Positions 3,088 through 25,714 are shown, counted from the stretch's first letter. The stretch: DNA of 64,000 nt from an uncultured Methanomassiliicoccales archaeon (GCA_963710685.1 CAVQBH010000014.1:16724-80723); one strand, 5' to 3'. Numbers and translations are program-made. The notes: generated by a model not told the origin, from the letters alone.

Positions 3088-3115
3088 TTTACAACGGCTA
3101 CCCCCGGTCTATGCT
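3088..3115 (+). promoter_or_regulatory. Sigma70-type promoter TTTACA-N16-TATGCT
   Basis: Both hexamers read directly, upstream of the NTPase gene. Confidence 0.5.
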
Positions 3116-3145
3116 CTTCTCCGGAAATTGCTATCGGGAAGCGCG

Positions 3146-3703
3146 ATGCAACCACCCGGCGCCAACGCACACCTGATTTTGCTCACCGGCCCGCACGGGG
3201 CCGGCAAAACGACCCTGCTCGGACAACTGGTCCAGCAAGCCAAACAGGCCGACTGGACCGTGTGTGGCCTGTTGTCGCCCGCTCAAATCCACAATGGGCG
3301 AAAAATCCGCCTCCACGCGCTGGACGTGTATTCAGGAGGCCGCCGCTTGCTCGCCAGCCGGGTCGTCGGCGAACTTGACGGACCGCGCGTTGGCGATTGG
3401 ATTTTCGACAGCGACGCCCTCGCATGGGGGAACGCCCTTCTTGCACGGACCCCCCCGTGCGACCTCTTCGTCCTCGACGAGCTTGGTCCTCTTGAGTTCG
3501 ACCACCACCGGGGCTGGACCGTTGCCTTCGACCTCCTGGCAAAACCCATGCCCTGCCGGTTGGCCATTGTCGTCGTCCGCCCGGATTACGCGGAGAGCCT
3601 CCTACACCGCTGCCCTCAGGCGGAGACCGTGACGGCTTACAAACCTGCAGAGGCTGACGCACTGGCGCGCCAACTGTGGGAGATGTACCGGAACACACCG
3701 TAG
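3146..3703 (+). CDS. DUF2478/NTPase_1 (THEP1-like) P-loop NTPase
   Basis: Walker A TGPHGAGKTT and Walker B LFVLDELGPLE..GW, followed by IVVVR. Confidence 0.8.
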   Translation: MQPPGANAHLILLTGPHGAGKTTLLGQLVQQAKQADWTVCGLLSPAQIHNGRKIRLHALDVYSGGRRLLASRVVGELDGPRVGDWIFDSDALAWGNALLARTPPCDLFVLDELGPLEFDHHRGWTVAFDLLAKPMPCRLAIVVVRPDYAESLLHRCPQAETVTAYKPAEADALARQLWEMYRNTP

Positions 3704-3794
3704 AACGGGCCTGTGCCTCCCACCGCCTCACGAAGGCCTGCTTAATCTATTCATCACTATAGCTTAATACATCACATAGTTTCAAAAGTTTTCA

Positions 3795-3836
3795 TTGACC
3801 GCAAGCACCGGGCGATATATTTGTCGGAACATAACG
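3795..3836 (+). promoter_or_regulatory. Promoter (-35 TTGACC) overlapped by a ModE-box-like operator CGATATAT-N7-AACATAACG (3813-3836)
   Basis: Closely matches the E. coli modA-type ModE site CGTTATAT-N7-TACATAACG (recalled consensus). A ModE-family gene closes the operon at 10083. Confidence 0.75.
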
Positions 3837-3918
3837 CTAGTCCGCCGCTTGGCGCTGCGGGCGAAGACCAAAACCAGATTAGTAACCAACATTCGATCCG
3901 AAAGGCTCGCGATCAGAC

Positions 3919-4689
3919 ATGAATAGCTCCAGACACCTCGCCCTTGCCTGCCTCGTGGCGGCTCTCGCTGCCGGCCCCGCGGCTCTGGCCAGCAACACCT
4001 TCACCGACCAGATCACCACCGACACCTACCTTGACAGCAGCAGCCCTACCGCCAACTTCGGCCTGTCCGGCAACGACAAGGTAGTTATCAACAGTACCTC
4101 CATGTGCCGGACGCTGTTCGATCTTCCCACCAGCCTCTGGTCTTACGCCCCGGGCGACATCCTGTCAGCTTCCGTCTCCTTTTATGTCTGGAGCGACAGC
4201 TCGGCCACTTACAATGTTTCCCTCTTCCCCCTAACCACCGCATTTGTCGAAGGAACCGGCGGCAAGAACGGCAAGATCCCAGCCGACGGTGCCACCTGGC
4301 TCACCTACGACGGCACACACTCCTGGACCGCCGCCGGCGGCGACTTCGATTCCGCTTATTCTGTGGTTGGCACCAAAGGCCCCATCGGCGTCAACCCCAG
4401 CGATAGCAATGGCCGCTTCTTCACCTTCGACATCACGTCCCTGCTGTCCAACCCGACGGCCGCCTCTGAACTCGAAAACTTCGGCGCCATGTTGAGAATT
4501 GACGAGACGGTACCGCCCAGCGGCCAGCGTTACGACTCGTTTACCAGCGCCAACAGCACGAGCTATTCGATCCCGTACCTTCCTTCCATTGAAGTAACCG
4601 TCGTGCCGGAGCCCTCAATCTCGGCACTGGGCGCGCTCGGTCTCGCCGCACTTGCCTCCTTCTTCAAGCAACGCAAAACGCGGCCCTGA
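3919..4689 (+). CDS. DNRLRE-like domain protein with PEP-CTERM sorting signal
   Basis: Signal peptide; DTYLDS..PTANFG; GATW..YDG..W..AGGDF; C-terminal VPEPS + TM + basic tail. Confidence 0.85.
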   Translation: MNSSRHLALACLVAALAAGPAALASNTFTDQITTDTYLDSSSPTANFGLSGNDKVVINSTSMCRTLFDLPTSLWSYAPGDILSASVSFYVWSDSSATYNVSLFPLTTAFVEGTGGKNGKIPADGATWLTYDGTHSWTAAGGDFDSAYSVVGTKGPIGVNPSDSNGRFFTFDITSLLSNPTAASELENFGAMLRIDETVPPSGQRYDSFTSANSTSYSIPYLPSIEVTVVPEPSISALGALGLAALASFFKQRKTRP

Positions 4690-4700
4690 GCCAAGACCGG

Positions 4701-5561
4701 ATGGTGCAAGCGCCCAATGAGATAACAACCACCGCTGATGGCACCCGGCAGACCCCGCAGACCCCGCACCATCCCGCCGCGTTCACCCTTGTGGAGTTGC
4801 TGGTGGTCATTGCCCTGATCGCCTTTCTGGCCGCGTTGCTCCTCCCGGCGCTGTCCAAAGCCAAGGCGAAGGCCATGGAAGCGAAGTGCTCTGCCAACCT
4901 CCGCTCCTGGGGCCAGTCGTTTTACCTCTACGCCAACGATCACAACGGATACCTGCCGCACACCGACGACGAGGGCCGCAACGACCCTCCCTTCACCTTC
5001 GACCCCAAACACCCGGAACACGAGTGCGGCTACGTGGACGTCCTGCCCCCTTGCATGGGCCTGCCCGCTTGGCGCGACTACACTAACGGACAGAAGCCGA
5101 CCGCCGGTGTCTGGCAATGCCCCTCAGCCAAACCCCTGCCGGACTCGGCTTACAACGCCGCTTTCAAACCCTCCAGCCAGGGCTACCACAGCTACGTCAT
5201 GAACTCCTACCTGGAGCAGGACTTCCTTTACGGCCTACCGTTCGGTGTCAGCCCGCAGCCCAGTTTCTTGAAGTTGGAGAAATGCACCTGCCTGCCCATG
5301 ACCATCCTCATGTTCGAGCAAACCCTTGATCCGAGCCAGGGCTACGGCCAGGCGGGAGGCTTTGACACCGCCGGGTGCTACACCGCCGAGGACCCCCGAG
5401 CGCTTGGCGAACGCCACCCGCACGAGCGCCCCAGCCTCGCCGGCAACGTCCTCTACCTCGACACCCACGTCGGCTGGCGCGACGACCTGTGGAACAAGGC
5501 CCTCACCAACCCCCGCATTCCCAAGCGAGGCGACCTGACATGGTTCCCCTACTATTACTGA
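4701..5561 (+). CDS. Prepilin-type N-terminal cleavage/methylation protein (DUF1559/H-X9-DG type)
   Basis: [38 protein letters not shown] and C-terminal H...GNVLYLDTH. Confidence 0.9.
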   Translation: MVQAPNEITTTADGTRQTPQTPHHPAAFTLVELLVVIALIAFLAALLLPALSKAKAKAMEAKCSANLRSWGQSFYLYANDHNGYLPHTDDEGRNDPPFTFDPKHPEHECGYVDVLPPCMGLPAWRDYTNGQKPTAGVWQCPSAKPLPDSAYNAAFKPSSQGYHSYVMNSYLEQDFLYGLPFGVSPQPSFLKLEKCTCLPMTILMFEQTLDPSQGYGQAGGFDTAGCYTAEDPRALGERHPHERPSLAGNVLYLDTHVGWRDDLWNKALTNPRIPKRGDLTWFPYYY

Positions 5562-5608
5562 TGAAAGCGCAGCACCACGTCCGCAACCTTACCCTGTCCC
5601 GGTACCCC

Positions 5609-6508
5609 ATGAACACACCGGCTCTCCTATTGGCGCTCGCGTTAGCCGCCCAATCGGCTTGCGCCCTCACCAACACGCTCACCATCACCAACACCACGTA
5701 CCTCGACAGCCGCGTCTCGAACCAAACACTCAATTACGGACACGCCCACACCGTCAAGGCCCTCATCAATAACAACGTCACTAGCGACGGTTCCATGTGC
5801 CGGGGCCTCATTCAGCTTCCAGCGCAGATATGGGCCTATCCCCCGGAGCAGATCCTGTCCGCCACCGTCGTCTTCTACGTATGGCAGGACAACAGCGGCA
5901 CCCGCAACGTCACACTCTATCCATTGACCCAGACCTTCGTCCAGGGAACCGGCACGGGAACCGCGCCCGCCGACGGCGCCACCTGGCTCACCTATGACGG
6001 CATCAACCCTTGGACTAATCCCGGCGGTGACTTCGACTCCGCCAACCCGGTTGTCGGAGTCAAAGGTGACATCCTCGATGCGGACCTCAACGACCGCTTC
6101 TTCTATTGGGACATTACCCCATTGCTGAAAAACACCAGCCGGACAGAGCTGCAAAGTTATGGAGCCATACTCCGAATGGATGAAACGCCCGTGCCCACCA
6201 CCGGCTCGCCCCGCGCCCCTTTCACTAGTTCCTACGACCCCAGCTACACGCCGCCCTACTGGCCCTCTCTTCAGTTCACCATTGCACCCACGCTGGCCGG
6301 CGTCTTGGTGTCGGGCGGTGCCATATCGTTTACCATCAGCAATCTCACCCTCGGCGCCACCAACACCATCGAGCGCTCGCTAAACCTCGCCACCAACGAC
6401 TGGGCCGCGGTTTCTTCTTTCGTCGCCACCAGCACCTCGACAAATTGGTCCGAAACCCTGCAGCCCGGATGGACCAAAGCCTTCTACCGGCTCCAGACCC
6501 AGCAATGA
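5609..6508 (+). CDS. DNRLRE-like secreted protein, paralog of 3919-4689, with C-terminal FYRL domain
   Basis: Shares TYLDS, SMCR, ILSA.V.FYVW, PADGATWLTYDG and GGDFDSA with 3919-4689; ends IERSLNL..W...FYRL. Alternative start at 5561. Confidence 0.8.
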   Translation: MNTPALLLALALAAQSACALTNTLTITNTTYLDSRVSNQTLNYGHAHTVKALINNNVTSDGSMCRGLIQLPAQIWAYPPEQILSATVVFYVWQDNSGTRNVTLYPLTQTFVQGTGTGTAPADGATWLTYDGINPWTNPGGDFDSANPVVGVKGDILDADLNDRFFYWDITPLLKNTSRTELQSYGAILRMDETPVPTTGSPRAPFTSSYDPSYTPPYWPSLQFTIAPTLAGVLVSGGAISFTISNLTLGATNTIERSLNLATNDWAAVSSFVATSTSTNWSETLQPGWTKAFYRLQTQQ

Positions 6509-7122
6509 ACGCGAGCCCAGCCGAAGAACCCATCGCTCAAACCGCAACCGCTCAGCCCGTCACCCGCATGGGGACCAGGCACTGGGTCTTCATCGGCTCA
6601 ATGGTCGCGCTCGACTTCGCCACCGGCCAGCTCATCAAGTCCATCCTCCACGCCTCGGGGATTAGCAATTTCATCCGCCTTGACATGTTCATCCCGGTGA
6701 CCCTCTGGATGCTCACCCGGCTGGTCGTGGACCGCTTCGGCGTCCTCACCGCCTATCAATTCGCCTGGGGCGTGCTCGCCATCTTCGCCTTCCCCGGCGC
6801 AATGCTGCCCGGCCCCCTCAAGCTCATTCCCGCCGTCATGCAGGGCCTCATTCACGATGCCGGCTTCTCCCTGCTGCCCCGTTACCCTCGTGGGCGGGTT
6901 TTCGTCTCCGCCGTTGTCGGCGGCCTCGTCAGCAAAATCGTCGTCACCGCCCTGCGCGTCCAGGTCCTCGGCCTCCCGTGGACCAAAGTCACGCAGGCTC
7001 TGTTCGGCGTCCAGGCCCTGACTTCCATCCTCGTTAGCGCCGCGGCGGCCGGGTTGGCGCTGGTCGTATGGTCTCGCATCCGCAATCTGCACATCACCCG
7101 CTTGATGAGCGTTCGGGCCTGA
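6505..7122 (+). CDS. Putative ECF transporter S-component (integral membrane)
   Basis: About 205 aa with 5-6 TM segments, directly upstream of the duplicated ABC ATPase and EcfT. Confidence 0.65.
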   Translation: MNASPAEEPIAQTATAQPVTRMGTRHWVFIGSMVALDFATGQLIKSILHASGISNFIRLDMFIPVTLWMLTRLVVDRFGVLTAYQFAWGVLAIFAFPGAMLPGPLKLIPAVMQGLIHDAGFSLLPRYPRGRVFVSAVVGGLVSKIVVTALRVQVLGLPWTKVTQALFGVQALTSILVSAAAAGLALVVWSRIRNLHITRLMSVRA

Positions 7123-8518
7123 TCCGCACCTGGCAGTTGGCCTTCCAGCCCGCCGGCGCCGACGCCCCGCTCCTCCAGGACATCTCCCTCCACATCGAGG
7201 CGGGCGAGCGCGTCGGCATCATCGGCCCTTCAGGGTCGGGCAAGACTACTCTCGCCCTCCACCTCGCCGGCCTCCACCACGTCGCACTGCTCGGCCGCAG
7301 CTCTGGCTCCCTCTGGCTCCAGGGCCGCGACTGCACCTGCTCCGGCTCTGAAGGCTTCGCCGGCGTCGTCCTCCAAAACCCCGAAATCCAGCTCTTCGGC
7401 GAAACCGTTGAAGAGGAAGTTTCCCTCAGCCTCCAACAACAGCCTGCCGACGTTGACCGCCAGAGCGAACTGCGCCGTTGGCTCGACCTCTTCGGCCTCG
7501 ACACCGTGCGCGACCGCCGCGTAGCAACGCTCTCGCTGGGCTGGAAACAACGCCTCTCCATCGCCAGCATGTTGGCGCTCGAACCCAAGGTCCTCTTGCT
7601 CGACGAACCCACCAGCTACCTCGACGAGCCTACCGCCGACCTCCTTTTCGACCTGCTCGCCGTCCAGTCCAAGAACGCCGGCCTCACCGTCCTCGTCATC
7701 GAGCATGACCTTCCCCGCCTCACCCGCTGGGCTTCGCGCCTGGTGGCCATGCGCCAGGGCCGCATCGCCTTCGACGGCCCGCCGGCAAACTACTCGCCAC
7801 CCCAACCCCTCGCCCCGCCCCACCGCGTCTCCGAGCCGCCGCGCTCCCCTGCGCCGCCAACTCCCTCCTCTCGCTCGAAGGAGTCACCTTTGCCTACAAC
7901 GGCCACGGAACTGCGCTCGACAACGTCTCGCTCTCCGTGGCGCCGGGTGAGATCGTCGCCTTGGTCGGCCCGAACGGCTCCGGCAAAAGCACCCTGCTCA
8001 ACCTCGCCAAGGGCCTCCTTGAACCCGACCAGGGACGAATCTCCTGCGGCTCCGCGGCCCCGCGCATGGATGCCGTCGGCCTCGTGTTCCAGAACCCCGA
8101 CAGCCAAATCTTCGCCCACTCTGTCTTCGAGGAGTGCTCGTTCCTGCCTCGCAATCAGAACTTCCCACCGGACGAGGTCACCACTCGCACCCGGCAGGCC
8201 CTGACCCAGGTGGGGTTGCAGTCGCATGAAGACCGGGCCCCCTTTTCACTCAGCTACGGCGAAAAGCGGCGCCTCACCCTCGCCTCGACCCTGTCAGGGC
8301 GCTCCACCGTGCTCTGCCTCGACGAGCCCACCGTCGGACTCGACCGCGATTGCCTCGCCCAGGTGGCTGCCACCCTCAACCATGTCAGCGCCCAGGGCTC
8401 AGGCGTCCTGCTCGCAACCCATGATCACGAATTCGTCCGCGCCGTGGCCACTCGCGTCGTGTCGCTCCGCGCCGGCCGCATCGTGAGCGACACCGGCCCG
8501 CAAGGAGGCATCGTATGA
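7119..8518 (+). CDS. ECF transporter duplicated ATPase (EcfA-A' fusion), apparent frameshift near 7880
   Basis: Two NBDs: GPSGSGKT/LQNP/LSLGWKQR/LLDEPT and GPNGSGKS/FQNP/LSYGEKRR/LDEPT, split over two frames. Start uncertain. Confidence 0.85.
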
Positions 8519-9222
8519 CCCGCCCGCTGGTGGACCAGGCTCAACCTCCTGACCCGGCTGACACTGTTCCTGGTGCTCTGCCTGCACGCCGCCACGGGAC
8601 ACCACTTCCTCCCCCAGTTGCTCCTCTGCTCCGGCCTTCTCCTTCTCCTGTTCGCCAGCGGAGTCGCCGGGCCGCATGCTCGGCTCCTCCTCTGGGCGCA
8701 CTTGCTGGGGCTGCCTGCCACCGTCCTTCTCTTCCTCGCCATCGGGTACGAAGACCGCCCGCTCCTTCTCCGGAGCCGTATCCTGGGGCCTGGTCGAAGC
8801 TCTCCGCTACGCCCTGCGCATTGAGTGTCTCCTCCTTGCCAACCTCCTCTTCATCGGCATCACCACCCCGTTGGAGATCATCTCCCTCTTCAACGCGCCC
8901 GTGGATCCCGCCCGCCGTCGGCACGCTCCTGTCCACTGCCGTGCGCTTCCTTCCCCTCTCCCTGGCCGAAGCCCGCCGCATCTACGACATTCAGCGCTGC
9001 CGTGGCCTGCGCCTGCGTCCCTGGGCTCCACAAAGCTGCCTCCCTGTCATAGTGCCCCTGTTCGTATCGCAAATGTGCCGAGCCCACGACACCTCCGTAA
9101 TGCTCGTCGTACGGCGCATTGCCACCGTCACCCGGGGCGCGTCGCCCTGCAAAGTTCGGCCTCGGCGGACCTGGTCCTTCTCGGACTCGCCCTCGCCTCC
9201 TGCCTCTCCTATCCTGCTATAA
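8515..9222 (+). CDS. ECF transmembrane component EcfT/CbiQ (several apparent frameshifts)
   Basis: TTP.EI, A.RFLP....EARRI..IQRCRG and PVIVPLF spread across frames. Confidence 0.75.
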   Translation: MTRPLVDQAQPPDPADTVPGALPARRHGTPLPPPVAPLLRPSPSPVRQRSRRAACSAPPLGALAGAACHRPSLPRHRVRRPPAPSPEPYPGAWSKLSATPCALSVSSLPTSSSSASPPRWRSSPSSTRPWIPPAVGTLLSTAVRFLPLSLAEARRIYDIQRCRGLRLRPWAPQSCLPVIVPLFVSQMCRAHDTSVMLVVRRIATVTRGASPCKVRPRRTWSFSDSPSPPASPILL

Positions 9223-9233
9223 GGAATCAAACT

Positions 9234-10044
9234 ATGCCAATGAATCGCGAAATCCTGTCTCGCCTCCTGGCGCAACTGCCCGAGCCCGCGCCGCGGCTCG
9301 AGGACCTGCATATCTCCCTGCACTGGGTCATCGTCAATTGCCATCGCTACGCCATGGCCACCTTCATCCGCCCCAGCTAACCCCTTCGACGCCTGCTTCC
9401 AGCCGGCGTATCTCGGCGACCAGCTCGGCCGCCCCATCCCCGAAATCGCCGACCGCTTCGCCGATTCCGAAGACACTCTCCGCCTTGGCCTCATCAACGC
9501 CTGTCTCAACGGCTCCATTCCGCTCCCCCGGGATACGTTCGAGGCCAACGCCGTTGATCCCTTCGCCGACTTCATAAAGCACTCCCGCACTTGCTTCATC
9601 GGCCACTTTCCCCAGGCGGAAATCTGGCGCGCCCAGGGACACCCCGTTACCATCATCGAACTCCAGCCCCGCAACGGCGACATCTCCTGGGCCGACTCCA
9701 AGCCCGTCCTCCGCGAGGCCGAAATCGTTTTCATCACCGGCCTGACCCTCCTCAACAACACCTTCCTGGAAGTCCTCGACCGCACCCCCCGCGCCCGCTA
9801 CCGCGTCTTGCTGGGCCGTAGCGTTCCCTTCTCCTCCATGTTCTTCGACTATGGAATTCAGCTCGTCGGCACAACGCACATCGCCGACCCCGCTCTCGCC
9901 CTCCGCTATTGTCAACACGGAGGCACGAACGTTCACCAGGCCCCGCCGGGCGCCCTGCGCCTGGTCAACGTTACCAACCAGCCCGCCCTCAAGGCCGAAC
10001 TGGCCCGCCTACGCCAGCAACCCAAAGACCCTTCCCCCAAATAA
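9234..10044 (+). CDS. DUF364 (Rossmann-like, putative metal/pterin-binding) protein, frameshift near 9380
   Basis: Downstream frame reads GLINAC..., IGHFP, IIEL.P, ITGLTLLNNT and LLGRSVP, typical of DUF364. Confidence 0.75.
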
Positions 10045-10082
10045 CCCCGTCCCCTCGTCCCCTCGCCGCTTCTCGCCGCCGC

Positions 10083-10454
10083 TCAGCGCTTAAGCAGCCG
10101 GCGGAACTCCCGAAACCCTTCCTCAATGGCCGCCTGGCTCTGCTCCTCCATCCGCCGATACAACACCACCACCTCCCGCCCCACCTCGGTCAATACCGCG
10201 CCGCCACCCGTTTTACCTCCGCGCTTGCACACCACCGCCGGCGACCGAAACCGCGCGTTCAGACTCTTCACGTGCTTCCACGCCGTCAGGTAGGCCATCC
10301 CCATCCGTGCCGCCGCCGCCTGCAGGCTGCCGGTCTCTCCAATCAGCTCCAGCAACTGCACTCGGCCGGGTCCCAAAGCCGCGTCCCGGCCACACATGAC
10401 CCGCAGCCGCGGCAGCACTGATGCCGGCGGCCCCGCACATTTCTTCTTCCGCAT
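10083..10454 (-). CDS. modE: Short ModE-family winged-helix regulator (no TOBE domain)
   Basis: LGPGRVQLLELIGETGSLQAAAARMGMAYLTAW and RGGKTGGGAVLTEVG; about 123 aa. Confidence 0.85.
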   Translation of the reverse strand: MRKKKCAGPPASVLPRLRVMCGRDAALGPGRVQLLELIGETGSLQAAAARMGMAYLTAWKHVKSLNARFRSPAVVCKRGGKTGGGAVLTEVGREVVVLYRRMEEQSQAAIEEGFREFRRLLKR

Positions 10455-13618: not shown

Positions 13619-16600
13619 TTATCGTGGAGCAGAGTAAGGCGGTTGAATCTCGCCGGGCGTGGAAAACTTCGATGAGATCTTCTCTTCGAAAGCCGCCTTA
13701 CCTTGCCACCACCAGCCAACGGCAATCAGCACGCATGCTAACAATCCCACGAAAGCGCGTTCCGACCACCGCGACCTCGCGACCGAAGGACGTGGGACAG
13801 GACGCGGCTTCTCCTCCAACAGCCGCCCTTTCACGACGGGCGTGGCGTTCGCCGCGGAACGCGGCGAGGCGGGGATGGCAGAGGCTGGACTTGGCCCTGG
13901 CGCGGGCTGCCAGTCCGCGCGCCTGGCGACACGTTCCGTTTCGGCAGCGACGGCAGGAGCGAGCTCAGCGTCCGTCCGGCGCAACTGAGCAACTGTTTCA
14001 GGCGCGGGTTGCCAGTAACCCTTGTTGATAACTGTCAGCATTCGTTCAACCATCGCTTGGTAGGCTGCAAGATTTTCCGCGCTGCGAAATCTCTCCCGAA
14101 TCCCCAGGTCATAGCGGTCCAATACATAGGTCTCGAACATTTCCTGCCATTTGGCCGCGTCCACGGCCTCCGGCACGGCGACCTGCCAGCCCCACAAGTT
14201 GTCGGTCACCTGCCGGATCATGCGCGCGCCGGCGTAGCCCTCCTTAAGCATCGCCTCGATCCACTTTGGGTTCAGATAGCGCGCCCGCATTTCGCGGCCC
14301 ATGTATCGTTCGAGGGTGACTGTCTCACCCGACCTGGGGTTGCTCAGGTCCGCGACCAGCGTGTCCACCGGTTTGCCATTCACCTCGCGAACGGCCATCG
14401 CGGTGCCGCCGAGGTATTGGTAGAAATCGTCGCTATCAATGGCGCCATAGACGTTCGACGAACGGCTGTGGATCACACCCTTTGCGCCCTTGAGCGCCAG
14501 TCGCAGAACCGTTGGTGATAGATCGGCGTTGGTGCCTGCCGCTGCCCGCGCGCCCCAAAAGCCTTGTCCGAACAGATGGCTCATGCGGTTGAAAAAGACC
14601 GCCGCGACCTGCTGCTCGTTGGTCCAACTATCCGCTTGCTGGATGGCATGATCCAGCCCTGCGCCGTAAGTTCCTGAAGGCACACTGAACAACCGCACTG
14701 ATGCCAGACGCTCGGCCTCGACTGGCGATACCCCTTGTGCTTCAAGGGCTGTGCGAGCCGCCGCAATGTTCCGCAGCAAAGGGTTGTCCGCGCTGGTGTC
14801 GGTCTTTACCAAGGTCACGGCTTGGTCGAGCAAAAGCATCAAGTTAGGAAATAAATCACGGTATAGCCCTGAAGGAATCACGGTTACATCCACGCGACGG
14901 CGACCCAACTCAGCGGGTGGAATCAAGTGCAACCCTTGCACCCGGCCACGAGCATCCCAATTGGGGCGCACCCCCATGAGCGTGAGGATCTCCGCCTCCA
15001 TTACCCCTTCGTGCCGGCTCGTCTCCGTGCCCCAAAGGTTGAATACCAGCCGGTCAGGGAACTGGCCATCGTGCCGTTTGCGATACGACGCGATGAGATC
15101 CACCGCCATCCGCGAGCCCGCAGCAAAAGTCGCCGCCGTCGGCAGCCGTGCTGGGTCGAAGCCATAGAAGTTCTTTCCCGTGGGCAATGCGTCTGGGTTG
15201 CGGATAGGGTCGTTTCCCGGTCCCGGCCAGGATGTAACGCCCGGCCAACCCAGCCGAAAGCGCATCCAATTCCGCCTGGGCTGAGGCTTCGATTCGTGCC
15301 ATCAACTCCGCTTTGCGCCTGGCGTGTTCTCCCGGAGACAGGTCGGGTTCGAGCGAGAGGATCGCTTCCGCTGTTGCCGCCCGCTTTGGCTCGTCGGGTG
15401 CGACGCCCAGCGTGTGCATGCCGAATGGCGTCATGCGTTCGCCAATCTTTCGGACGTGGTGCTCGATCTCCTCAATTTGATCGTCGTTCAACGACGCCCC
15501 AGGCGCGAGCGTAATGTCCAGGTCCTTGAAAAGCCCGCGCCGCTCGCAACGTTGCGCCAGCTCGCGAACCAGCTCGTCCCTGGCCGGCGAGCCTTTGTCC
15601 CGGGCGACGTGGTAATCGTTGATGAGTCCCGCAATCGCGTGGAGTTCCGGGCTCAAGCTCGCCCGATCCAGCGGCGGCGGCAGATGCGTGATGATGGCTG
15701 CCATCGCGCGGCGTTTGGCCTGCAGACCCTCCCCAACGTCGTCCACGATGAACGGATAAAACTGCGGCACAGCGCCGACCAGAACCTCGCCCGTGTCGGC
15801 GGCGGTGAAACCGACCTCCTTGCCCGGCAGCCATTCGTGGGTGGCGTGCGTGCCGACATGCACCATCGCATCGGCGTGAAAGTTCTTTTGCAGCCAGAGA
15901 TAGAAAGCGAGGTATTGATGATGCGGCGGCAGAGTTACGTCGTGGTAGATCGCCTCTATGTCCTGATCCCAGCCGCGCGTGGGCTGTGGGCCAAAAGCCA
16001 CGTTCCCCCAGCGCAGAATAGGCAGCACGAAGAACGGCGTCCCCGACGCATCTCGCCACACCATGACTTTGCTCTGCTCCGGTTCGCCCCACTTGGCCAC
16101 GATTTGCGCGCGCAAAGGCGCCGGCGCCTGATCGAACCATTGGCGGTATTCCGACATCGGGACCAGTTGGACGCGCCCCGAACGGGCCAATTGGTCGAGC
16201 TCCGTCGCGACGTTCGTGCCCGGTGTGGGGTTGTTCCCAAAGGTGCGGATAGCGGTGAACAGTTCGTCCGCGTTGGTGGGCGCACCGTCCGCAGCGAAAC
16301 CATCGGCCCGGAGCCGGTTGAGGATTTGCAGCAACGACTGCGGCAGCACGTTCAGATAGGAGGCGCCGATGGTTTCGCGTCCCGGCGGATAGTTGTAGTA
16401 GATCACGGCCACCCGTTTGTTGGCGGGTGGTTCGTGGCGCAAACGCACGAACGCCTGCACCCGATCGGCCAGGCGCTCGACCCGTTCGGCAATCGGCATC
16501 GTCATTACGTAAGTTTGGCCGGTGGCAACGTCCACGAGCTTTTCCTTGGAGGCGACAATGGTGGGCGCCACAGCACCCGCCAGTTCCGCGCTGCCGATCT

Positions 16601-17537
16601 GCCAGGAACGCTCGATGAAATCCAGACCGGAGGCGGAGCGTTCCCATTCGGCACGGCTTTGACTGTTCAGCGCGACGGCGTTGAGAATCGGCACGTCGAG
16701 CTGTGCCAGCAGCGGCGCCAGCTTGTCCGGAACATTACCGATTTTGAGCGTCAATCCGACCAGCGCTTCGATGCGGGGGTGGCCATTGGTACCGAGGAAC
16801 AAGAGCGGTAAGGCTGCGTGGCTCGGATAACCAAACCCGAACAGCGCATTAAACCCGCGCAGGTCCAAGGCGGTGTTGAGGGCGGACAACAACTCGGTCT
16901 GGCCGGACGTGGCGGTGTCGCGCGAGAAATACACCCCAATCCAGGGGCGCCTCTGGCGATCCGCTGCCCCGGCCAGATAGGCGGCGGCATAGTCCTCAAA
17001 TCGCGCGAATGCTCGACGGCCAGTGGGTTCGAAGAAGCCGAATTCCGGGAAGGGGGAAGGCGCGATCAAGTGCAAGCCGGGCTTGTAGTGCCGTGCGAGC
17101 GCGGCGCGCACAAGTTGTACCAGATTGGCCTGCCCACCCGCATCGAAGCAGGCTGCGAGTTCTGCATCGCGCTTGAACCCTAGGTCGGCAAACTCCGGGT
17201 CCAGTGTGCCGCCGACTCCCGCCAGCCAAGCGCCATGTGCCGAGGCGGCCTGAATTTCCGCCGCGAGCGCTCGCAGTAACGCACCGTAACGGGTGTAGCC
17301 GACTATAATGTCGCTTTTGCGAATGAACTGGCGGTCATTGTCGTCGAGTTCGACCCGCGGGAACGCCCGGACGGTAACATCGCTCAACTCGGGGTCCCGC
17401 CGCAACTCAGTGATGGCGCCAATGGCCGCGGCCGACTGTGCATCGCCTGTGAGCAGAGCAACCCTCACTTGGACAGCGTCTGAAGCGGTAACACTGAGGC
17501 AGCCGAGGCAAACGAGCAATGGAGTGAGGAACTTCAC
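13619..17537 (-). CDS. cobN: CobN/ChlH-family (HmuS-like) chelatase/dechelatase with signal peptide and C-terminal TM; frameshift near 15225
   Basis: YYNYPPG, PPHHQY, HVGTHATHEWLPGK, DPIRNPDALPTGKNFY, SGLYRD, RYLNPKWIEAM..GYAGA; formed by joining ORFs 15054-17576 and 13619-15265. Confidence 0.9.
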
Positions 17538-17544
17538 GCCACGC

Positions 17545-17907
17545 TCATTTGGGTTTTGTTTCTTCGTCCGGCACATAGACGACTTGGCCGTTGGCGAGGC
17601 GATAGGCCGTGCCGAGGCGTATGCCCTGGCCGGAGAGTGTCTTGTCGGTGACCTTCTGCACCTTAATCTGAGCTCCGTGCTTGGTGATGATCTCCATCTC
17701 GCCGGACTCGGTCTGCTTGACGAGCGTTACGTTGGACTTCTTGTCGAGCAATGTGCCGGACGAAAACAGGGCAAACAGCGCGATCAGCAGCGCGACGATG
17801 AACGCCACGCTCACATCGAACAGATTCGCGATGCCAGCCAGCGGGTCCTCGTCATGCCCTGGCGCCGGGCCGTGAGCCGAAATCCGATGCCGCTGAACGA
17901 AGCGCAT
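17545..17907 (-). CDS. DUF2149 protein (HmuV-like)
   Basis: EDPLAGIANLFDVSVAFIVAL and G.RLGTAYRL.NG.VVYVP. Confidence 0.9.
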   Translation of the reverse strand: MRFVQRHRISAHGPAPGHDEDPLAGIANLFDVSVAFIVALLIALFALFSSGTLLDKKSNVTLVKQTESGEMEIITKHGAQIKVQKVTDKTLSGQGIRLGTAYRLANGQVVYVPDEETKPK

Positions 17908-18519: not shown

Positions 18520-20811
18520 TCATTGGGTTTTCGCACGGTAAAAGCGGGTAGCACTATTGGTCACTGCGCCATCTGTAAATGTCATCGTGCCGCTGGTGCT
18601 GGTGAAATTGGTAACGGCACTCCAAGCGGCAGGCGACAGGTTGGTGGTGGATTCAATCGAATAATTTCCCAGCGTCGGGCCGGACCATGTCAGATGCGCG
18701 CCAGTGGCGTTGATGCCGGTGATGGCCAATTGTCCTGCCGTGCTGGGACTGGTGACGGCCAAGACGGCAAATTGCGGACGCAGGCTGGTTTCTTGGGGGG
18801 CAGGCACGTCCGCACCCACGGAGAAAGTGACGGCGTTGGTGGCAACCAGATTGGTCACGCTAAAGGTCACAACGCTGGGGCCGTAGTTGGCGATGCTCGT
18901 GTTCCACTGCGCAACGTCGTCGCCGCCGTATTGAACGCCGTTGAAGTAGAGACGGTCGTTCTGGCCGGTGTCGCCGTAGGTGTAAAGCGCGGTGAGCGTG
19001 GCGTTGGTCGCGTTCGCGGGATTGACCGGCGCGAACACGGCGATGCGCTGGCTGACTTCGCCCGATGCTGGCGAGCCGTAAATATCGCCGCTGCCCTCGG
19101 CAATCGAGTAAGCAAAAGCATTGGTCAACGCGCTGCTTTGATAAACGGCTGCGAGTGCGACGTATTGGATGCGTCCGTCAAAACTGTCCGGCGTCGTTTC
19201 GGTCACGCTGATGGTGTTGGGCGTGCCGTTGGTGAAAAGCATTCCCGCCGGAATGGGCATGGCCACCAGCCAGACGCCGTAGCCGGAGCCGTAAGCGCAA
19301 GGCGCGTCGCTGCTGAACAGGGCGTTCAAGTCGCCCGTGGTGCCGAACACGAACGGGTTTGCCACCGGCAAATTGGTGCCGTTCACTGTCACTGTCATGT
19401 CGCAGGTGTAATCATGCGTTCCGCCCCAAACCGTCATGAGCAGCCGGCTGGCGACGATGCGGTTGCAGGCCGGCATGGTCATGGTTTCCTGGTAGGTGTA
19501 AGGCAGGCTGGGCGCGACGTTCGGCCAAGTGTCAATGTTCGTCCAGAACAGACCGCCGTTGGCGATGTTGCCCGCAAGCACGTTGGTCATGCCCAATCCG
19601 CCAAAGGCAAAGCCACCCACGCCCATTGAAAACACCGTGCCGGAATTGTTTATGCCGCCGCTGGAAGTCCAGCCATAAAGCGTGTTGTTGGTGTAAGCCA
19701 GGTCACCATCAGGATTGGCTCCATCCGGGCCGGTGAAACTGTGAAGGATGCTGAAGCCGGTGCCATCAAGACCAATCTTGAACAACGTGCCGACGTTGGA
19801 ACTGCCGCCAATTTTGGTCGTGCCCACGAGAAAGGAACCGACCGAAGTCAGTGCGCCATTGGGATTGGCACCGTTGGTTGCGCCGCCGGTGAAGTTAAAC
19901 AAAACGCTGTAACCGCTGCCGTCGGTATTCAACGAATAAATGGTGCCCAAGTTCGCCGTGCCGCCAACGCGCGTCATGCCGTAAAATCTTGAACCGACCA
20001 ACGTCAACCCGCCGTAGGGGTTCGCGCCGTTGGTCGTGCCGCCGGTGAAGTTGACCAGATTGGTGTAGCCGCTGCCGTCGGGGTTGACGCTGAAAACCAC
20101 GCCATCATTGCCGGTGCCGATCAAGCTGCCGGTTCCTCCATGCACGGTCGTGCCGTAGAGCACGCCATTGTTCAGCAAGAGCGAGCCGCCCAACGGTCGC
20201 GAGCCGTCATTCGTTCCGCCAAGAAAAGTGTGCAAGTTGGTAAAGCCGCCACCGCTGGTGGGAAGCGAATAAATCGAACCGACGCCTGTGCCAGTGCCGT
20301 AGTAGGTCATTCCGTAAAGCGCGGAACCATCAACAATCACGGCACCGTAGGGTTTGTAGCCGGTGCTGGTGGTAAAGCTGTGCAAGTTTTGATAACCCGA
20401 GCCGTCCGCATCAACCGAAAAAACGGTGCCGTAGCCGGTTGTGCCATTGCCGCCGCCGCCGTAGTAGGTCGTGCCGTAAAGCGTCGAGCCGCTCAAGGCC
20501 AGCGAGCCGAGCGGTTGGTAGCCGTCGGGCGCAACGTTGGTGAACGTGTGCAGAACGGCGAAACCGGTGCCATCCATGTTGACTGAAAACACCACGCCGC
20601 CGCCCGCCGCGCCTTGATTAACCGTGCCGTAAATCGTCGAACCGGAAATGACCGGCGCGCCATAATACGGATTGGCTCCGTCCGCGCCGCCGGTAAAGGA
20701 GTGGAGCACGCTAAATTGGGCAAAAACGGTGCCGCCGCTCATCGCCAACACTGCGACCGCCAATTTGAGAATTGAACTTCTATTTAGTTTCGTTGTTTTG
20801 ACGTATTTCAT
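18520..20811 (-). CDS. Secreted protein: GloVer tandem-repeat propeller + DUF3344-like domain + C-terminal FYR domain
   Basis: Signal peptide; seven LH.FTGG..GA.P...LYG.T..GG repeats; then SRL..TVWGG, GSGYGVW, FDGRIQYVAL.AVY and AEG (DUF3344-like); ends YSIESTTNL..W...RFYRA. Confidence 0.75.
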   Translation of the reverse strand: MKYVKTTKLNRSSILKLAVAVLAMSGGTVFAQFSVLHSFTGGADGANPYYGAPVISGSTIYGTVNQGAAGGGVVFSVNMDGTGFAVLHTFTNVAPDGYQPLGSLALSGSTLYGTTYYGGGGNGTTGYGTVFSVDADGSGYQNLHSFTTSTGYKPYGAVIVDGSALYGMTYYGTGTGVGSIYSLPTSGGGFTNLHTFLGGTNDGSRPLGGSLLLNNGVLYGTTVHGGTGSLIGTGNDGVVFSVNPDGSGYTNLVNFTGGTTNGANPYGGLTLVGSRFYGMTRVGGTANLGTIYSLNTDGSGYSVLFNFTGGATNGANPNGALTSVGSFLVGTTKIGGSSNVGTLFKIGLDGTGFSILHSFTGPDGANPDGDLAYTNNTLYGWTSSGGINNSGTVFSMGVGGFAFGGLGMTNVLAGNIANGGLFWTNIDTWPNVAPSLPYTYQETMTMPACNRIVASRLLMTVWGGTHDYTCDMTVTVNGTNLPVANPFVFGTTGDLNALFSSDAPCAYGSGYGVWLVAMPIPAGMLFTNGTPNTISVTETTPDSFDGRIQYVALAAVYQSSALTNAFAYSIAEGSGDIYGSPASGEVSQRIAVFAPVNPANATNATLTALYTYGDTGQNDRLYFNGVQYGGDDVAQWNTSIANYGPSVVTFSVTNLVATNAVTFSVGADVPAPQETSLRPQFAVLAVTSPSTAGQLAITGINATGAHLTWSGPTLGNYSIESTTNLSPAAWSAVTNFTSTSGTMTFTDGAVTNSATRFYRAKTQ
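19620..20720 (-). repeat. Seven ~50-55-aa protein-level GloVer repeats
   Basis: Repeat anchors LHSFTGG, LHTFTNV, LHSFTTS, LHTFLGG, LVNFTGG, LFNFTGG and LHSFTGP. Confidence 0.8.
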
Positions 20812-20837
20812 AAATGATTTAACGGTGTGGGAGTGAT

Positions 20838-21515
20838 TTATTGGGAAGCGTCCCATTCGTTTTGGGTGGTGATTGTTTTGAATTCGACGTGGTCGTCGCA
20901 ATACGCGGCCACAAAACCCTTCTTCGAGTGGCGATAATCCACATACGGAACCGGGTTGGTGAACGAACTGCCGCTGCCGCACCAGTAATCGCCCGGCGTG
21001 CAATCCCCATAAATAATGGTGCCCGAAGGATGGCGAATGTTGTTCGCTTGAACGCCATACCAGAAGCAATAAGCGTTACCCGCGAAGTTGAACGTGTTGA
21101 TGCCGTAGCTCAAAAAGATGTTCGTGTCCCAGGTCACGGGAATCTTTTTCAAATCCGAAGGGCACAGATAGACGCCGGAAGTTTTGCCAATGAATGGCTT
21201 CAACAAATCCATCCAGCGCGTGGTGGAATCAATCCAAGCCGGCGGGTAACTCTTGGCTTCATCCACGTACATCTGGGTGGCCAACCCGATTTGCCGGAGA
21301 TTGCTTTCGCAGCCTGCGCGTTTACCGCGTTCTTTCGCATTCGCCAATGCGGGCAACAGCAACGCGGCCAAAATCGCAATGATGGCGATGACCACCAGCA
21401 GTTCAATCAGCGTGAACGCCGCCTCTCCTCGATGCTGACCCAGGCAATGCGCATCCTTGCTCCAGGCTCTTAACGGTCTGCCTGGATGCAGCGGCTCTGC
21501 CCACGGTGCTTTCAT
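20838..21515 (-). CDS. Prepilin-type N-terminal cleavage/methylation protein (DUF1559/H-X9-DG type)
   Basis: [39 protein letters not shown] and RH....AAYCDDHVE. Confidence 0.9.
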
Positions 21516-21562: not shown

Positions 21563-21629
21563 GCCCATTCGAAAAAAGACCGCAATGCTGCAAAACGCCC
21601 CCATGCGGCGAACCTTGCTTGGAACCAGT

Positions 21630-21657
21630 TTGACACATCCTGTATGGTGCCTACCAT
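21630..21657 (+). promoter_or_regulatory. nikR promoter TTGACA-N16-TACCAT
   Basis: Consensus -35 hexamer; the -10 lies about 20 nt before ATG 21678. Confidence 0.6.
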
Positions 21658-21677
21658 TGCCGAGGAACTGTCACGCC

Positions 21678-22106
21678 ATGAAGCAAGAATTGGTTGAGCG
21701 GTTCACCGTGTCGGTGCCGGCGGCGCTTCTGCGCCAGTTTGACGGCATGGTGAACCAGAAGGGATACGAGAATCGTTCGCAGGCTATCGCCGATCAGATG
21801 CGCGACGCCCTCGTCGAGCACCAGCAAGAGTACGGCTCCGGCGAAATTGCCGGCACCATTACGCTCCTTTACGACCATCACAAGCAGCACGTCCAAGCAA
21901 CTCTCACCGACATCCAGCATGACCACCATGAGGTGATCGTCTCTACCCTCCACGTCCATCTCGACCACCATAATTGCCTGGAGGTCCTCGTCGTGCGCGG
22001 CCAGGCCAAAACCGTCAAGAAGATCGCCGACGAACTGATCGCCGCCAAGGGCGTTAAACATGGCAAGCTTACGGTCACCTCCACTGGCAAGGACCTTCCG
22101 GGCTGA
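21678..22106 (+). CDS. nikR: Nickel-responsive regulator NikR
   Basis: Ribbon-helix-helix RFTVS..GYENRS; YDHH; QH; HVHLDHHNCLEV; KGVKHGKL. Confidence 0.95.
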   Translation: MKQELVERFTVSVPAALLRQFDGMVNQKGYENRSQAIADQMRDALVEHQQEYGSGEIAGTITLLYDHHKQHVQATLTDIQHDHHEVIVSTLHVHLDHHNCLEVLVVRGQAKTVKKIADELIAAKGVKHGKLTVTSTGKDLPG

Positions 22107-22379: not shown

Positions 22380-23113
22380 ATGAACAAGAACACTTGATTC
22401 GCTCACCCGACGTGAGGCTATCCGACGCACTGCGCTCCTGAGCGGCCGTGGCGAGCTTTTGCTCCGCGGCTTTCCGTCGCATTCCGGCGCGGAACCGCCG
22501 GGGGCCTTTTCTCTGCCGCCGCTCGGCTATGCATTCGATGCGCTCGAACCTTACATCGACGCCCAGACGATGCAGATTCATCACGACAAGCACCACGCCG
22601 CCTACGTCGCCAACCTGAACAAGGCCTTGACCGAAGCACCTACGCTTCCGGCAAGCCCATCGAGTCCATCTTCCGCGACCTTGAAGGCGTTCCCGAACCA
22701 ATCCGCACCGCCGTGCGCAACAACGGTGGGGGCCATGCCAACCATTCGTTTTTCTGGCCGCAACTCAAGAACAACCAAGGGCATGGTCCTTCAGGCGAAC
22801 TGGCCAGGGCCATAGACAGCAGGTTTGCCGGCTTTGCCGGGTTTCAGCGCCAGTTCACCGAGGCAGCCACCAAGCAGTTTGGGAGTGGCTGGGCATGGCT
22901 CACGATTAGCGCCGACAAGCAACTTGCGGTTGAGTCCACGCCCAACCAGGACACGCCTCTGTCCAAAGGGCGCACGCCACTGCTTGGCATTGACGTTTGG
23001 GAGCACGCTTACTACCTCAAATACCAAAACCGCCGACCGGAATATATCGCGGCATTCTACGCGTTATCAATTGGGACGTAGTGGCTGACCGGTTCCAAAA
23101 GGCGACAGGCTGA
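22380..23113 (+). CDS. sodA: Mn/Fe superoxide dismutase with Tat-like signal (several apparent frameshifts)
   Basis: [36 protein letters not shown] and DVWEHAYY; TRREAI twin-Arg near the N-terminus. Confidence 0.9.
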
Positions 23114-23594: not shown

Positions 23595-23775
23595 TCTCCC
23601 ACTCTATTCCGGGCGTCGGTGTAGATACCGATTCCCAAAGTGCTCTGCTGATTGCCTCAGCAGGCAATTCCATGTTCGTGAGACCCGTTCTCAGCGCGTG
23701 GCGCATTGGCGCGCACACGGTGTAAACCAGAGCTTAGATACAAGATCAATTAAAAACCATAAAAGTAATCAAAAT

Positions 23776-24600
23776 ATGAAAAGTCAGATTAATTCGGCAG
23801 CCAAAACTAAATTGCGAAATCGTGTAGTCAATATTCTTGGATCCGCTGTGTTGGCGGGGTCTGTGCTCCCTGCTTCGGCCGACCTTTATCAAGTCACCGG
23901 CGGTTCAGTTTCGATGACAATCACGGAAGGCCTGGCCAGCAGCGTTGACAATTTTGACGCTTATTTTGACGCGACCGCCACCCGTGCCCAGACGCTCAGC
24001 GATCCGGCCCCGGGTAATGCGCCCTTCGCTGTTAATGGAGCGACTGTCACCGTGGTGGATCCGATTCGTCCCTACGGCGTTGTCCCCAGTCCGTACCCGG
24101 GCACTCCCGGTTCGACACGAAGCCCCCAGATGACAACACTCGAATTCGATTCCAACGATGTCCTTGGCAGTTGGAGTCTTTCCAATGACTCTTTTGGTTT
24201 TGTCGGAAATACGACACTGGGAGAGCAAATTGCGCTGACCAGTATGCAGCGCTGGACCGGGCCGTTCAGCGGCGCCTTGCTTTACGGTGATTTCGGACTT
24301 CGGCGGGTGTCGGCAACAGAGTTGGCGCTGACCAGCAACATTGACTTCCTGAATGCTGATTTCGCCGACATCGTAAACCCGACCATTTCAGTAACAGACG
24401 ATACGCTGACGATCAGCGGCGACCTGCTCATGGGCAATGGGCTTTACCTGTTGGACCCAAGCGTGGTGCCCGGCACCGATTTCGGTACGTTCACAATGAC
24501 CGCGGGGATAGCGGCCGTTCCGGAGCCATCTGCTCTAGCCCTGCTCGGTCTTGGCGCGGTGGTCCCGTTGCTGCGCCGCATCCCCAGGTTAAACCGCTAA
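23776..24600 (+). CDS. PEP-CTERM surface protein of unknown domain
   Basis: Signal peptide; C-terminal VPEPSAL + TM + RR; paralog of 24671-25714. Confidence 0.85.
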   Translation: MKSQINSAAKTKLRNRVVNILGSAVLAGSVLPASADLYQVTGGSVSMTITEGLASSVDNFDAYFDATATRAQTLSDPAPGNAPFAVNGATVTVVDPIRPYGVVPSPYPGTPGSTRSPQMTTLEFDSNDVLGSWSLSNDSFGFVGNTTLGEQIALTSMQRWTGPFSGALLYGDFGLRRVSATELALTSNIDFLNADFADIVNPTISVTDDTLTISGDLLMGNGLYLLDPSVVPGTDFGTFTMTAGIAAVPEPSALALLGLGAVVPLLRRIPRLNR

Positions 24601-24670
24601 CACGCCATGGATATCCCGTGCGGATTGGGTTGGTAGCAATCCAATCCGCGACGTGAATTCGTTTAAATAC

Positions 24671-25714
24671 ATGAAGCTGCGTTTGCCTTCGCTTATGGCG
24701 ATGTTCCCCATCGTCCTCGGCATGGCGATAAACTCCGCTCGCGCACTGACGATCACCGGTGGCACCGCTACCCTGACTCTGGAGGAGGGCAAAGCCGACA
24801 GTATTAGCTGGCTGGACGCCTATTTCAGCGACGCCAAAACCCGGGGGCAAACCCTGTCGGACCCAGCTCCGGGCGACGCACCGTATGTCCGTCTGTCGGG
24901 AACACCCGGCACCATCGGAACGGGCTCGACATCGGGTGTGCTGGGCGTTCCCGGGATCGTTCAGGTCACGGATACGATCCGCCCTTTCGGAGTGATTCCC
25001 ACCCCGCCAGCGCCGGACACCTATCCCGGCACCCCGGGGTCTTCACGCTCGAGGCAAGTCACGACGCTTGATTTTAGCCCGACCAACATTCTGGGCAGTT
25101 GGACCGCATCGACCGACCTGGTTGGCGTATTCGTCACCACCGACGCCTTGAGTGAGCAAATCGCTTTTACCTGTATGCAACGTTGGGGAGGGCCATTTAC
25201 TGGCGTGCTGATCTACGGCGATTTTGCCTTGCGTTACGTGCCCACCCGTGCGGGGACTGTGGCTCCGGGTGGAACCCTGTCGGGGCTGGCGATGGTAAGT
25301 AACATCGACTTCCTCGATTCATCCTGGGCCGACCTGGCCAATGCTTCCATCACTTTCAGCAACAATACGCTGAACATATCAGGCGACCTGTTGATTTCCG
25401 GCGCGCTCAACCTGCTTGACCCGACAGCGACGGTGGGAACGAAATTTGGAACGTTCAGCATGAACGCCACCGTCTTACTCCCCACTCCGCTCATCCATCG
25501 CTTCGCCAGGAATGGCGGCATGGTAACGTTAGAGGCCATGAATGGCCTGCCGAACGGCGGCTACACCGTGCTTTCCTCCACAAACCTCGCGCTGCCGCTC
25601 GCTGCCTGGAGTGTGAGCGCAACGGGCTCGTTCGACGCGAGCGGAACCTGTTCAAACTCCATTCCAACACTGCCGGGGGAAAGCGCACGATTCTTCCGGC
25701 TGCAGCAGCCGTGA
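24671..25714 (+). CDS. Secreted paralog of 23776-24600 with C-terminal FFRL domain
   Basis: Shares [37 protein letters not shown] and SNIDFL; ends [15 protein letters not shown]. Confidence 0.8.

Follow-up and report, generated by a model that had tools for sequence, protein, structure and literature searches.

The stretch of DNA analysed here, a 64,000-nt window of genome G000 (2.84 Mb; G, L and C numbers denote genomes, loci and contigs of G000, respectively), carries an operon for an energy-coupling factor (ECF) transporter behind a putative ModE-type operator. The operator, CGATATATTTGTCGGAACATAACG, lies at 3813–3836 (read on the + strand) and is a 24-bp imperfect palindrome with two 8-nt arms and an 8-nt spacer. 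The first gene of the operon (3919–4689, + strand, like all the operon genes) encodes protein A, a secreted DNRLRE-domain protein with a PEP-CTERM anchor; it matches NF033679 above the cut-off (E = 1.3e-9), while its match to the PEP-CTERM family PF07589 falls under the cut-off (18.8 bits). Next come a pilin-like protein with a prepilin-type N-terminal methylation motif (4701–5561; PF07963, E = 9e-6; TIGR02532) and protein B, also called 'FYRL' (5561–6508, with an uncertain start at 5561 or ~5609). Protein B is paralogous to protein A but differs in its C-terminal domain – it is 53% identical over ~200 amino acids (aa) to the DNRLRE-type domain of protein A, and its last ~46 aa resemble the C-terminus of an 849-aa open reading frame (ORF) at 18523–21069. 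The transporter genes follow: an S-component (6505–7122), a fused EcfA-EcfA' ATPase (7068–8518) and an EcfT of the CbiQ family (8515–9222). The last gene of the operon encodes a DUF364 protein (9234–10044), and the gene for a short ModE-like regulator is convergent with it (10083–10400, − strand).

A gene for a P-loop NTPase (3146–3703, + strand) lies upstream of the operator and outside the regulated unit; orthologs of it are found upstream of the operon in L002, L004, L019, L053 and L055. The order of all these genes is as given in an initial annotation of the window. That annotation had likened the NTPase to DUF2478, a label that does not hold: DUF2478 is not among the 17 Pfam families matched at E ≤ 0.01, and the best match is to the NTPase_1/THEP1-like family (PF03266, 59 bits, E = 6.8e-16).

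The ATPase and T components match ECF families. EcfAA' has two ABC_tran domains, with ECF_ATPase_2/1 as the best NCBIfam matches (E = 3e-40 and 5e-50, both under the equivalog cut-offs), and in 17 orthologous loci a single frame encodes both domains as a fusion. EcfT matches PF02361 with 27.6 bits (cut-off 25) on the third and largest of its fragments and is intact, at 233 aa, in L019. The DUF364 protein matches PF04016 (103.1 bits against a cut-off of 23, E = 1.4e-29) and is encoded in one frame in the orthologs. No Pfam or NCBIfam family matched the S-component, a profile of its alignment (A1) had no matches to PDB sequences at E ≤ 10, and its homologs fall into 68 clusters, all unnamed or 'hypothetical'. 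The AlphaFold2 model of this protein (pLDDT 83.9, pTM 0.78) has six long helices. When the model was compared with the PDB by Foldseek, a check proposed with the initial annotation, the top matches were ECF S-components (probability 0.9–1.0, TM 0.5–0.63), all with E > 0.001. They include the YkoE-type 5edl, ThiT, PanT, RibU and BioY, with 5edl, 3rlb, 6zg3_C and 5kbw_B at TM 0.56–0.63. An A-x-x-x-A motif in helix 1, presumably involved in docking to EcfT, is nearly invariant in alignment A1. Atlas feature neighbours of the S-component include clusters named or annotated as Thia_YuaJ, ABC_cobalt and Trep_Strep. No CbiN/NikN-like partner gene was seen in the operon, and no gene for a substrate-binding protein lies within it. 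Judged by sequence and predicted fold, then, the transporter is of the genuine ECF type, as had been claimed, with a new S-component family.

The operator sequence named in the initial annotation is real and far beyond chance: the window has a single copy, 100 shuffles gave no match, and it is the sole site with 0–1 mismatch in the whole of G000. It ends 82 nt before the start codon of the first operon gene (ATG at 3919). An invariant TTGAC lies 13 nt before the box in 10/10 aligned orthologous upstream regions – in the window it is part of a −35-like TTGACC at 3795–3800 (+ strand) – so that the left arm plausibly covers the likely −10 region. A sigma-70 scan called no + strand promoter at the box under its rule of a 16–18 nt spacer; TTGACC and the best −10-like hexamer are 15 nt apart, one short of what that rule allows. 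The proposed overlap of box and promoter is thus plausible from the invariant TTGAC but was not recovered by promoter prediction. In the upstream regions of L006, L008, L009, L010, L012 and L020, a further inverted repeat, TGTGAAAC-TTTTCAC, stands directly before the −35 TTGAC (columns 28–43 of alignment A2). It is degenerate in the window, and we take it to resemble a site of the CRP/FNR family.

Scans with the S-component alignment yielded 62 loci, 19 from genomes and 43 from metagenomes, and the orthologous upstream regions could be searched for the box, as had been suggested. It is retained in 10/10 genome loci in which the upstream region of the first gene is preserved and in 11 of the 12 distinct metagenome loci of the same architecture (it is absent from L063 and has three mismatches in L054); several of the box-bearing loci are near-duplicates, which makes these counts non-independent. 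The box consensus, CGTTATATTTC-N2-GAAATATAACG, is almost perfectly palindromic. Variant palindromes of the CGATGTAT-N8-ATACATCR type precede the S-component gene in Holophaga-type loci, in those of the Planctomycetes-Verrucomicrobia-Chlamydiae (PVC) group and in Deltaproteobacterial loci, and L017 has a ModE-like gene directly upstream.

Five whole genomes were scanned for the pattern CGWTATAYN8RYATAWCG with at most one mismatch, with the reversed pattern as a control, which had no matches. In G041, G042 and G043 (4.2–5.0 Mb), exact matches occur at two places only. One is before the ECF operon. The other adjoins the sole ModE-family gene and lies ahead of a molybdate-uptake operon, which encodes a DNRLRE/CBM96-like secreted protein, a DUF1559 pilin-like protein, a paralog of the first of these, and one or more ModA-type binding proteins (SBP_bac_11) and/or an MFS_MOT1 permease. 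Since the exact pattern is confined to the ModA/MOT1 and ECF operons, the ModE regulon of these Verrucomicrobia would consist of those two operons. Membership of the ECF operon in a ModE regulon is well supported by these sequence patterns and very probable, and we hold with similar assurance that the system is a ModE-controlled ECF importer linked to molybdenum or tungsten (Mo/W). Weaker box-like sites near 61098 and 62500 in the window have other spacings, were missed by the degenerate pattern and adjoin ORFs with no family match; they were set aside as chance occurrences.

The ModE-like gene at 10083–10400 is the only strong ModE-family match in G000. It matches TIGR00637 (75.4 bits, E = 2.8e-21, below the cut-off of 98.5), PRK10676 (E = 4.5e-12) and HTH_1 (PF00126). 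A convergent ModE gene is therefore present, as claimed, but it encodes only a DNA-binding domain, an N-terminal winged helix of ~105 aa: the protein has no Mop/TOBE part, and no TOBE match was found anywhere in G000. The single ModE genes of G041–G044 are open frames of 117–161 aa. In L004, a minus-strand gene at 9379–10428, adjoining the short ModE gene, encodes an HTH_3 + PBP_like (PF12727) regulator, an architecture that we associate with tungstate- or molybdate-responsive regulators; it could be the source of the missing sensor domain. Two further stretches, one just before the window (C14:16439–16553) and one in L019 (970–1050), resemble the 5' part of the ModE-like gene. The ModE-like stretch has 72% DNA identity to window positions 10310–10424 and may be a partial duplicate.

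Known neighbours were mapped onto all 62 loci by tblastn, together with Pfam scans, and the neighbourhoods are of two types. In the Verrucomicrobial type, the protein A / pilin / protein B module is always in front. The other type comprises 12 distinct loci from Victivallales, Holophaga, a PVC bacterium, Deltaproteobacteria and unbinned contigs; nine of these have a TonB-dependent receptor, seven FmdE, four DUF364 and three XdhC. FmdE is sometimes fused to a methyltransferase in these loci, DUF364 occurs in up to three copies, and XdhC is once fused to DUF364. In L002, L004, L013, L018 and L087, XdhC adjoins DUF364, is fused to it or diverges from the box; in L002 and L004 the divergent XdhC gene lies between the NTPase gene and the box. 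A sub-lineage that starts with the pilin-like gene (L007, L059–L062, L064, L066 and L067) has the box in L062 only. In the annotated members of this sub-lineage, L062 and L064, the S-component gene is followed by an inserted DNA methylase gene, and L064 has a truncated EcfA; we read the sub-lineage as a degraded variant of the operon. The Verrucomicrobial envelope module (DNRLRE/PEP-CTERM protein, pilin-like protein and paralog) fills the place that TonB-dependent receptors have in other phyla.

The genomes that carry the operon differ in their capacity to make the molybdenum cofactor (Moco). MoaC is present in 13 of 20 operon-bearing genomes and missing in 7. MoeA_N is missing in all seven MoaC-less carriers and present in all six MoaC-positive genomes tested, on another contig than MoaC. 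Five of the seven carriers without MoaC and MoeA_N nevertheless have molybdoenzyme-family genes. G049 has a fused XdhAB (985 bits, over the equivalog cut-off) and a protein like the alpha subunit of formate dehydrogenase, and G050, G053 and G058 have one such Fdh-alpha-like protein each (475–574 bits, under the equivalog cut-off). G000 has no match to Mob_synth_C (the MoaA C-terminal domain), MoaE or MoCF_biosynth. It has a SUOX-fold protein, encoded on contig C9 (271875–272306; L043:8426–9448, − strand), in which an Oxidored_molyb domain is fused to a DUF4079 membrane domain. Where this protein aligns with SorA around the CSGNSRG stretch, a Cys is retained, which we take to be the Mo ligand. 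AFOR_C, the domain of tungsten aldehyde oxidoreductases, was not found in the five genomes tested. The matches to nitrogenase families in G000 proved to be CfbD-like proteins or fragments, not NifDK.

G000 also has no ModA-type (SBP_bac_11) match, so the description of the ECF system as standing in place of ModABC is true of this genome, but not of G041–G044, all of which have SBP_bac_11; in three of the four the oxyanion operon shares the box. A SUOX-fold gene is present in 12 of the 26 genomes of the family of G000 (G000 included; 11 of the 25 relatives by PF00174), while MoaC and the MoaA C-terminal domain are found in none of the 26. The SUOX-fold genomes of this family are candidates for Moco auxotrophy with retention of a Moco enzyme.

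In the assembly of G000, a three-frame translation shows that EcfAA', EcfT and DUF364 each shift frame. Relative to L019, a public contig that is 98.6% identical over 10.2 kb and has each of these genes in one frame, there are nine single-base insertions or deletions between 7847 and 9376: one in EcfAA' (a missing base near 7847), six in EcfT (extra bases at 8527, 8754, 8891, 9149, 9162 and 9207), one intergenic and one in DUF364 (an extra base at 9376). Nine such changes in 1.5 kb, eight of them in genes, might mean that the frameshifts are real and that the ECF part in G000 is a decaying, non-functional passenger on a mobile island. The setting is compatible with such a passenger. Seven same-genus genomes lack any DNA homolog of the window's first ~28.7 kb, the host lineage has no ModA-type or Moco-synthesis genes, and a gene for a large serine recombinase (646 aa; C14:13678–15615) lies just upstream of the window. 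However, in contigs of four public wetland/peat runs that cover the stretch, the reading frames are restored at 9/9 sites, and some of these contigs otherwise differ from the window by just 1–3 letters (at most 63% of the window's words are present in any one of these runs). The ECF part is a diverged allele relative to L019 in which synonymous codon differences outnumber non-synonymous ones (75 to 34), and the proteins encoded upstream of it are 98.9–100% identical to those of L019. Other genes of the assembly are split too, each into two overlapping ORFs – CobN (13619–17576), an Fe/Mn superoxide dismutase (22459–23081) and an aldehyde dehydrogenase (C14:945–2512). Because these genes are also split and intact versions of the operon exist in public contigs, the frameshifts are probably consensus errors of the assembly, and decay of the operon is rather unlikely.

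In the remainder of the window, the region 28.8–48 kb is syntenic, at 81–90% identity, with the same seven genomes. The contrast between the first ~28.7 kb and this syntenic part indicates that the operon lies on a strain-specific island or, less likely, on a chimeric join; the island looks to be 30 kb or more in size. Several other metal-related genes are found there. Between 10588 and 17576, on the minus strand, are genes for a CobW-like G3E GTPase, a 'variant radical SAM' protein (NF045502, 198 bits), a 196-aa protein of no assigned family and a CobN-type chelatase in two ORFs, a cluster that may have to do with nickel or tetrapyrroles. NikR is encoded at 21585–22106, next to a copy of the envelope module (23698–26514) that consists of a pilin-like protein and two paralogs with 44% identity, one of them a PEP-CTERM protein. 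Between 18520 and 21638 are the 849-aa protein that shares the 'FYRL' C-terminal domain and a DUF1559 pilin-like protein. The envelope module thus seems to accompany metal-related loci generally. Outside the window, at ~131800–136750 of C14 (L044:2835–7750, − strand), this Verrucomicrobial metagenome-assembled genome has a complete set of genes resembling those for coenzyme F430 biosynthesis: CfbA (139.6 bits), CfbD (415.7) and CfbE (295.4) score over the NCBIfam cut-offs, and CfbB (509.8) and CfbC (360.9) slightly under them, with CbiE, CbiD and CbiH-like genes as neighbours.

We infer ModE repression, the direction of transport and the cargo from these genomic patterns. The operon would form part of a recurrent set for molybdenum or tungsten acquisition that combines envelope capture, an inner-membrane importer and cytoplasmic handlers. 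Capture would be by a TonB-dependent receptor outside the Verrucomicrobia and by the DNRLRE protein, the pilin-like protein and the paralog within them. The importer would be a dedicated, group-I-like ECF module of the new S-component, the fused EcfAA' and EcfT, and the handlers would be DUF364 and often XdhC and FmdE. With the −10 region of the promoter under the operator, the short ModE-like repressor would shut the operon off when the molybdenum signal is high. As for the cargo, a preformed molybdenum-pterin cofactor (Moco or a molybdopterin-type compound) may cross the inner membrane via the S-component and be received by DUF364 or XdhC-type proteins, so that cells could economise on de novo Moco synthesis or do without it. 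A ModE-controlled ECF importer of such a cofactor is the explanation that we favour overall, with about an even chance of being right, and judged from sequence the cofactor ranks first among the candidate cargoes, at slightly less than even. A bolder and more tentative proposal is that the S-component family is the capture subunit of the first described prokaryotic importer of Moco or molybdopterin, sustaining enzymes of the xanthine dehydrogenase, formate dehydrogenase and sulfite oxidase types after loss of moaA, moaC and moeA; DUF364, XdhC and FmdE would then be its receiving chaperones in the cytoplasm.

The strongest competitor for the cargo is free molybdate and/or tungstate, for which the ECF transporter would be a high-affinity importer alongside ModA/MOT1, with DUF364 handling the oxyanion in the cytoplasm. 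Passages of the literature on ModE describe its regulons as classically governing oxyanion uptake (PMC11672702), and in part of a study of Methanococcus maripaludis DUF364 is placed within modABC operons and is cofit with nifH (bioRxiv 10.1101/2024.03.05.583561). The same envelope module also precedes the ModA/MOT1 operon. Yet seven of the 20 carriers lack MoaC, for molybdopterin synthesis, and MoeA_N, for metal insertion, alike, and an imported oxyanion could not be converted to Moco there; an oxyanion or a chelate would therefore be useless to these cells and a ready-made cofactor useful. An oxyanion importer behind the same operator would also duplicate the work of ModA/MOT1, G000 yielded no nitrogenase, the S-component appears to be a plain, solitary six-helix type with no CbiN-like partner seen, and a TonB-dependent receptor would be unexpected for an anion of ~160 Da. 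The ECF S-component, the TonB-dependent step and the XdhC/FmdE maturation proteins fit better with a cofactor than with an anion, and we regard oxyanion import as a serious rival, possible but less likely. The TonB-dependent receptors, which flank nine of the 12 distinct non-Verrucomicrobial loci, would suit import of molybdenum or tungsten bound to a secreted chelator of the molybdophore or siderophore type, with DUF364 releasing or processing the complex, and so would the methyltransferase-FmdE fusion within some operons. Chelate or siderophore chemistry is among the proposals in a portion of the DUF364 structure paper (PMC2954201). No chelator biosynthesis genes were seen in any annotated locus, however, and the seven carriers without Moco synthesis could not use the imported metal, which makes a chelate improbable. 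Least weight, about as little as for the chelate, goes to a cargo unrelated to molybdenum or tungsten, in which case the ModE-like regulator, together with its box, would have been co-opted for sensing another signal. The regulator is without molybdate-binding Mop domains and the S-component has no assigned substrate, but the box is common to an operon for ModA-type and MOT1-type molybdate transport, and the XdhC, FmdE and DUF364 neighbours are all linked to Mo/W enzymes or uptake. Taken broadly, it is unlikely that the cargo is something other than a cofactor, an oxyanion or a chelate.

Import of a preformed cofactor itself faces a number of difficulties. Free Moco is very labile. The majority of the operon-bearing genomes (the 13 with MoaC) retain a gene for Moco synthesis, and gaps in metagenome-assembled genomes may account for some of the Moco-gene absences in G049–G063. 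Two of the genomes without Moco genes, G057 and G060, have no match to the three molybdoenzyme families tested. The S-component has no matches in 40 relatives of the genus, family and order of G000, so the SUOX-fold relatives must obtain their cofactor, if any, from another source. No Moco riboswitch or other Rfam family was found in window positions 1–30000 (E ≤ 0.1) or in 11 related loci (gathering score), and no ligand-binding domain is known for the short ModE. That the ModA/MOT1 operon is headed by the same envelope module would fit a small-anion cargo. DUF364 points in both directions. Parts of its structure paper predict a pterin- or flavin-like ligand and place the family near molybdate, tungstate and vanadium ABC transporters (PMC2954201); according to sections of that paper and of the M. 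maripaludis study, it also occurs inside modABC/wtp-type oxyanion operons of organisms that make Moco (PMC2954201; bioRxiv 10.1101/2024.03.05.583561). Because DUF364 is also found in oxyanion operons, it is by itself no pointer to a cofactor.

The system has features in common with several that are known. Like the vitamin-type ECF transporters (ThiT, RibU, PanT, BioY and YkoE with EcfAA'T), it has a six-helix S fold with A-x-x-x-A in helix 1, EcfA/A' and a CbiQ-type T component; it differs in being a dedicated single-operon module with a fused A-A', a ModE-type operator, DUF364 and envelope proteins, and in its S-component with no sequence-family match. CbiMNQO and NikMNQO are likewise dedicated one-operon ECF modules for trace metals under a metal regulator, and TonB-dependent receptors are sometimes associated with them. 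They differ in having CbiN/NikN, and CbiM (5x3x_m) is a weaker fold match to the S-component (TM 0.48/0.43). With the E. coli ModE-modABC system, the operon shares the N-terminal domain of the regulator (TIGR00637, PRK10676). The window operator is an AT-rich 8-nt inverted repeat with CG at both outer ends, presumably similar to the E. coli ModE site. Here, unlike in E. coli, the regulator has neither of the two molybdate-binding Mop subdomains and the transporter is of the ECF type with no periplasmic binding protein; the logic of uptake repression, as outlined in a portion of one source (PMC11672702), would be common to both. MolBC-A (HI1470-1472) is a type II ABC importer with a binding protein, for molybdate/tungstate, rather than an ECF importer. 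In the modABC-DUF364 operon of M. maripaludis, part of the published account has DUF364 in a molybdenum-uptake operon and cofit with nifH (bioRxiv 10.1101/2024.03.05.583561), although that organism has a classical ModABC for the oxyanion and its own cofactor synthesis. The salvage of cobalamin offers an analogy of function only, with no sequence relationship and with a cargo that is putative on the side described here. BtuB-BtuCDF combines a TonB-dependent outer step with an ATP-driven inner importer of a costly metal-organic cofactor, in producers and auxotrophs alike.

Molybdenum uptake is viewed as transport of the oxyanion, by ModABC, Tup, Wtp, MolBC and MOT1, and no bacterial importer of ready-made molybdenum cofactor is known to us. 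The literature yielded no description of an ECF transporter for molybdenum or of a transporter for Moco, and a passage of one source states the general view that Moco is not taken up as a nutrient by most organisms (PMC9026282). Whatever its cargo, an ECF importer in a ModE regulon would be a new transporter class for molybdenum homeostasis. If the cargo is indeed the cofactor, the finding would account for the functioning of genomes that encode molybdoenzymes and lack a Moco pathway, would give a role to DUF364, FmdE and some XdhC-like proteins, and would make Moco cross-feeding in anoxic peat and wetland communities directly testable.

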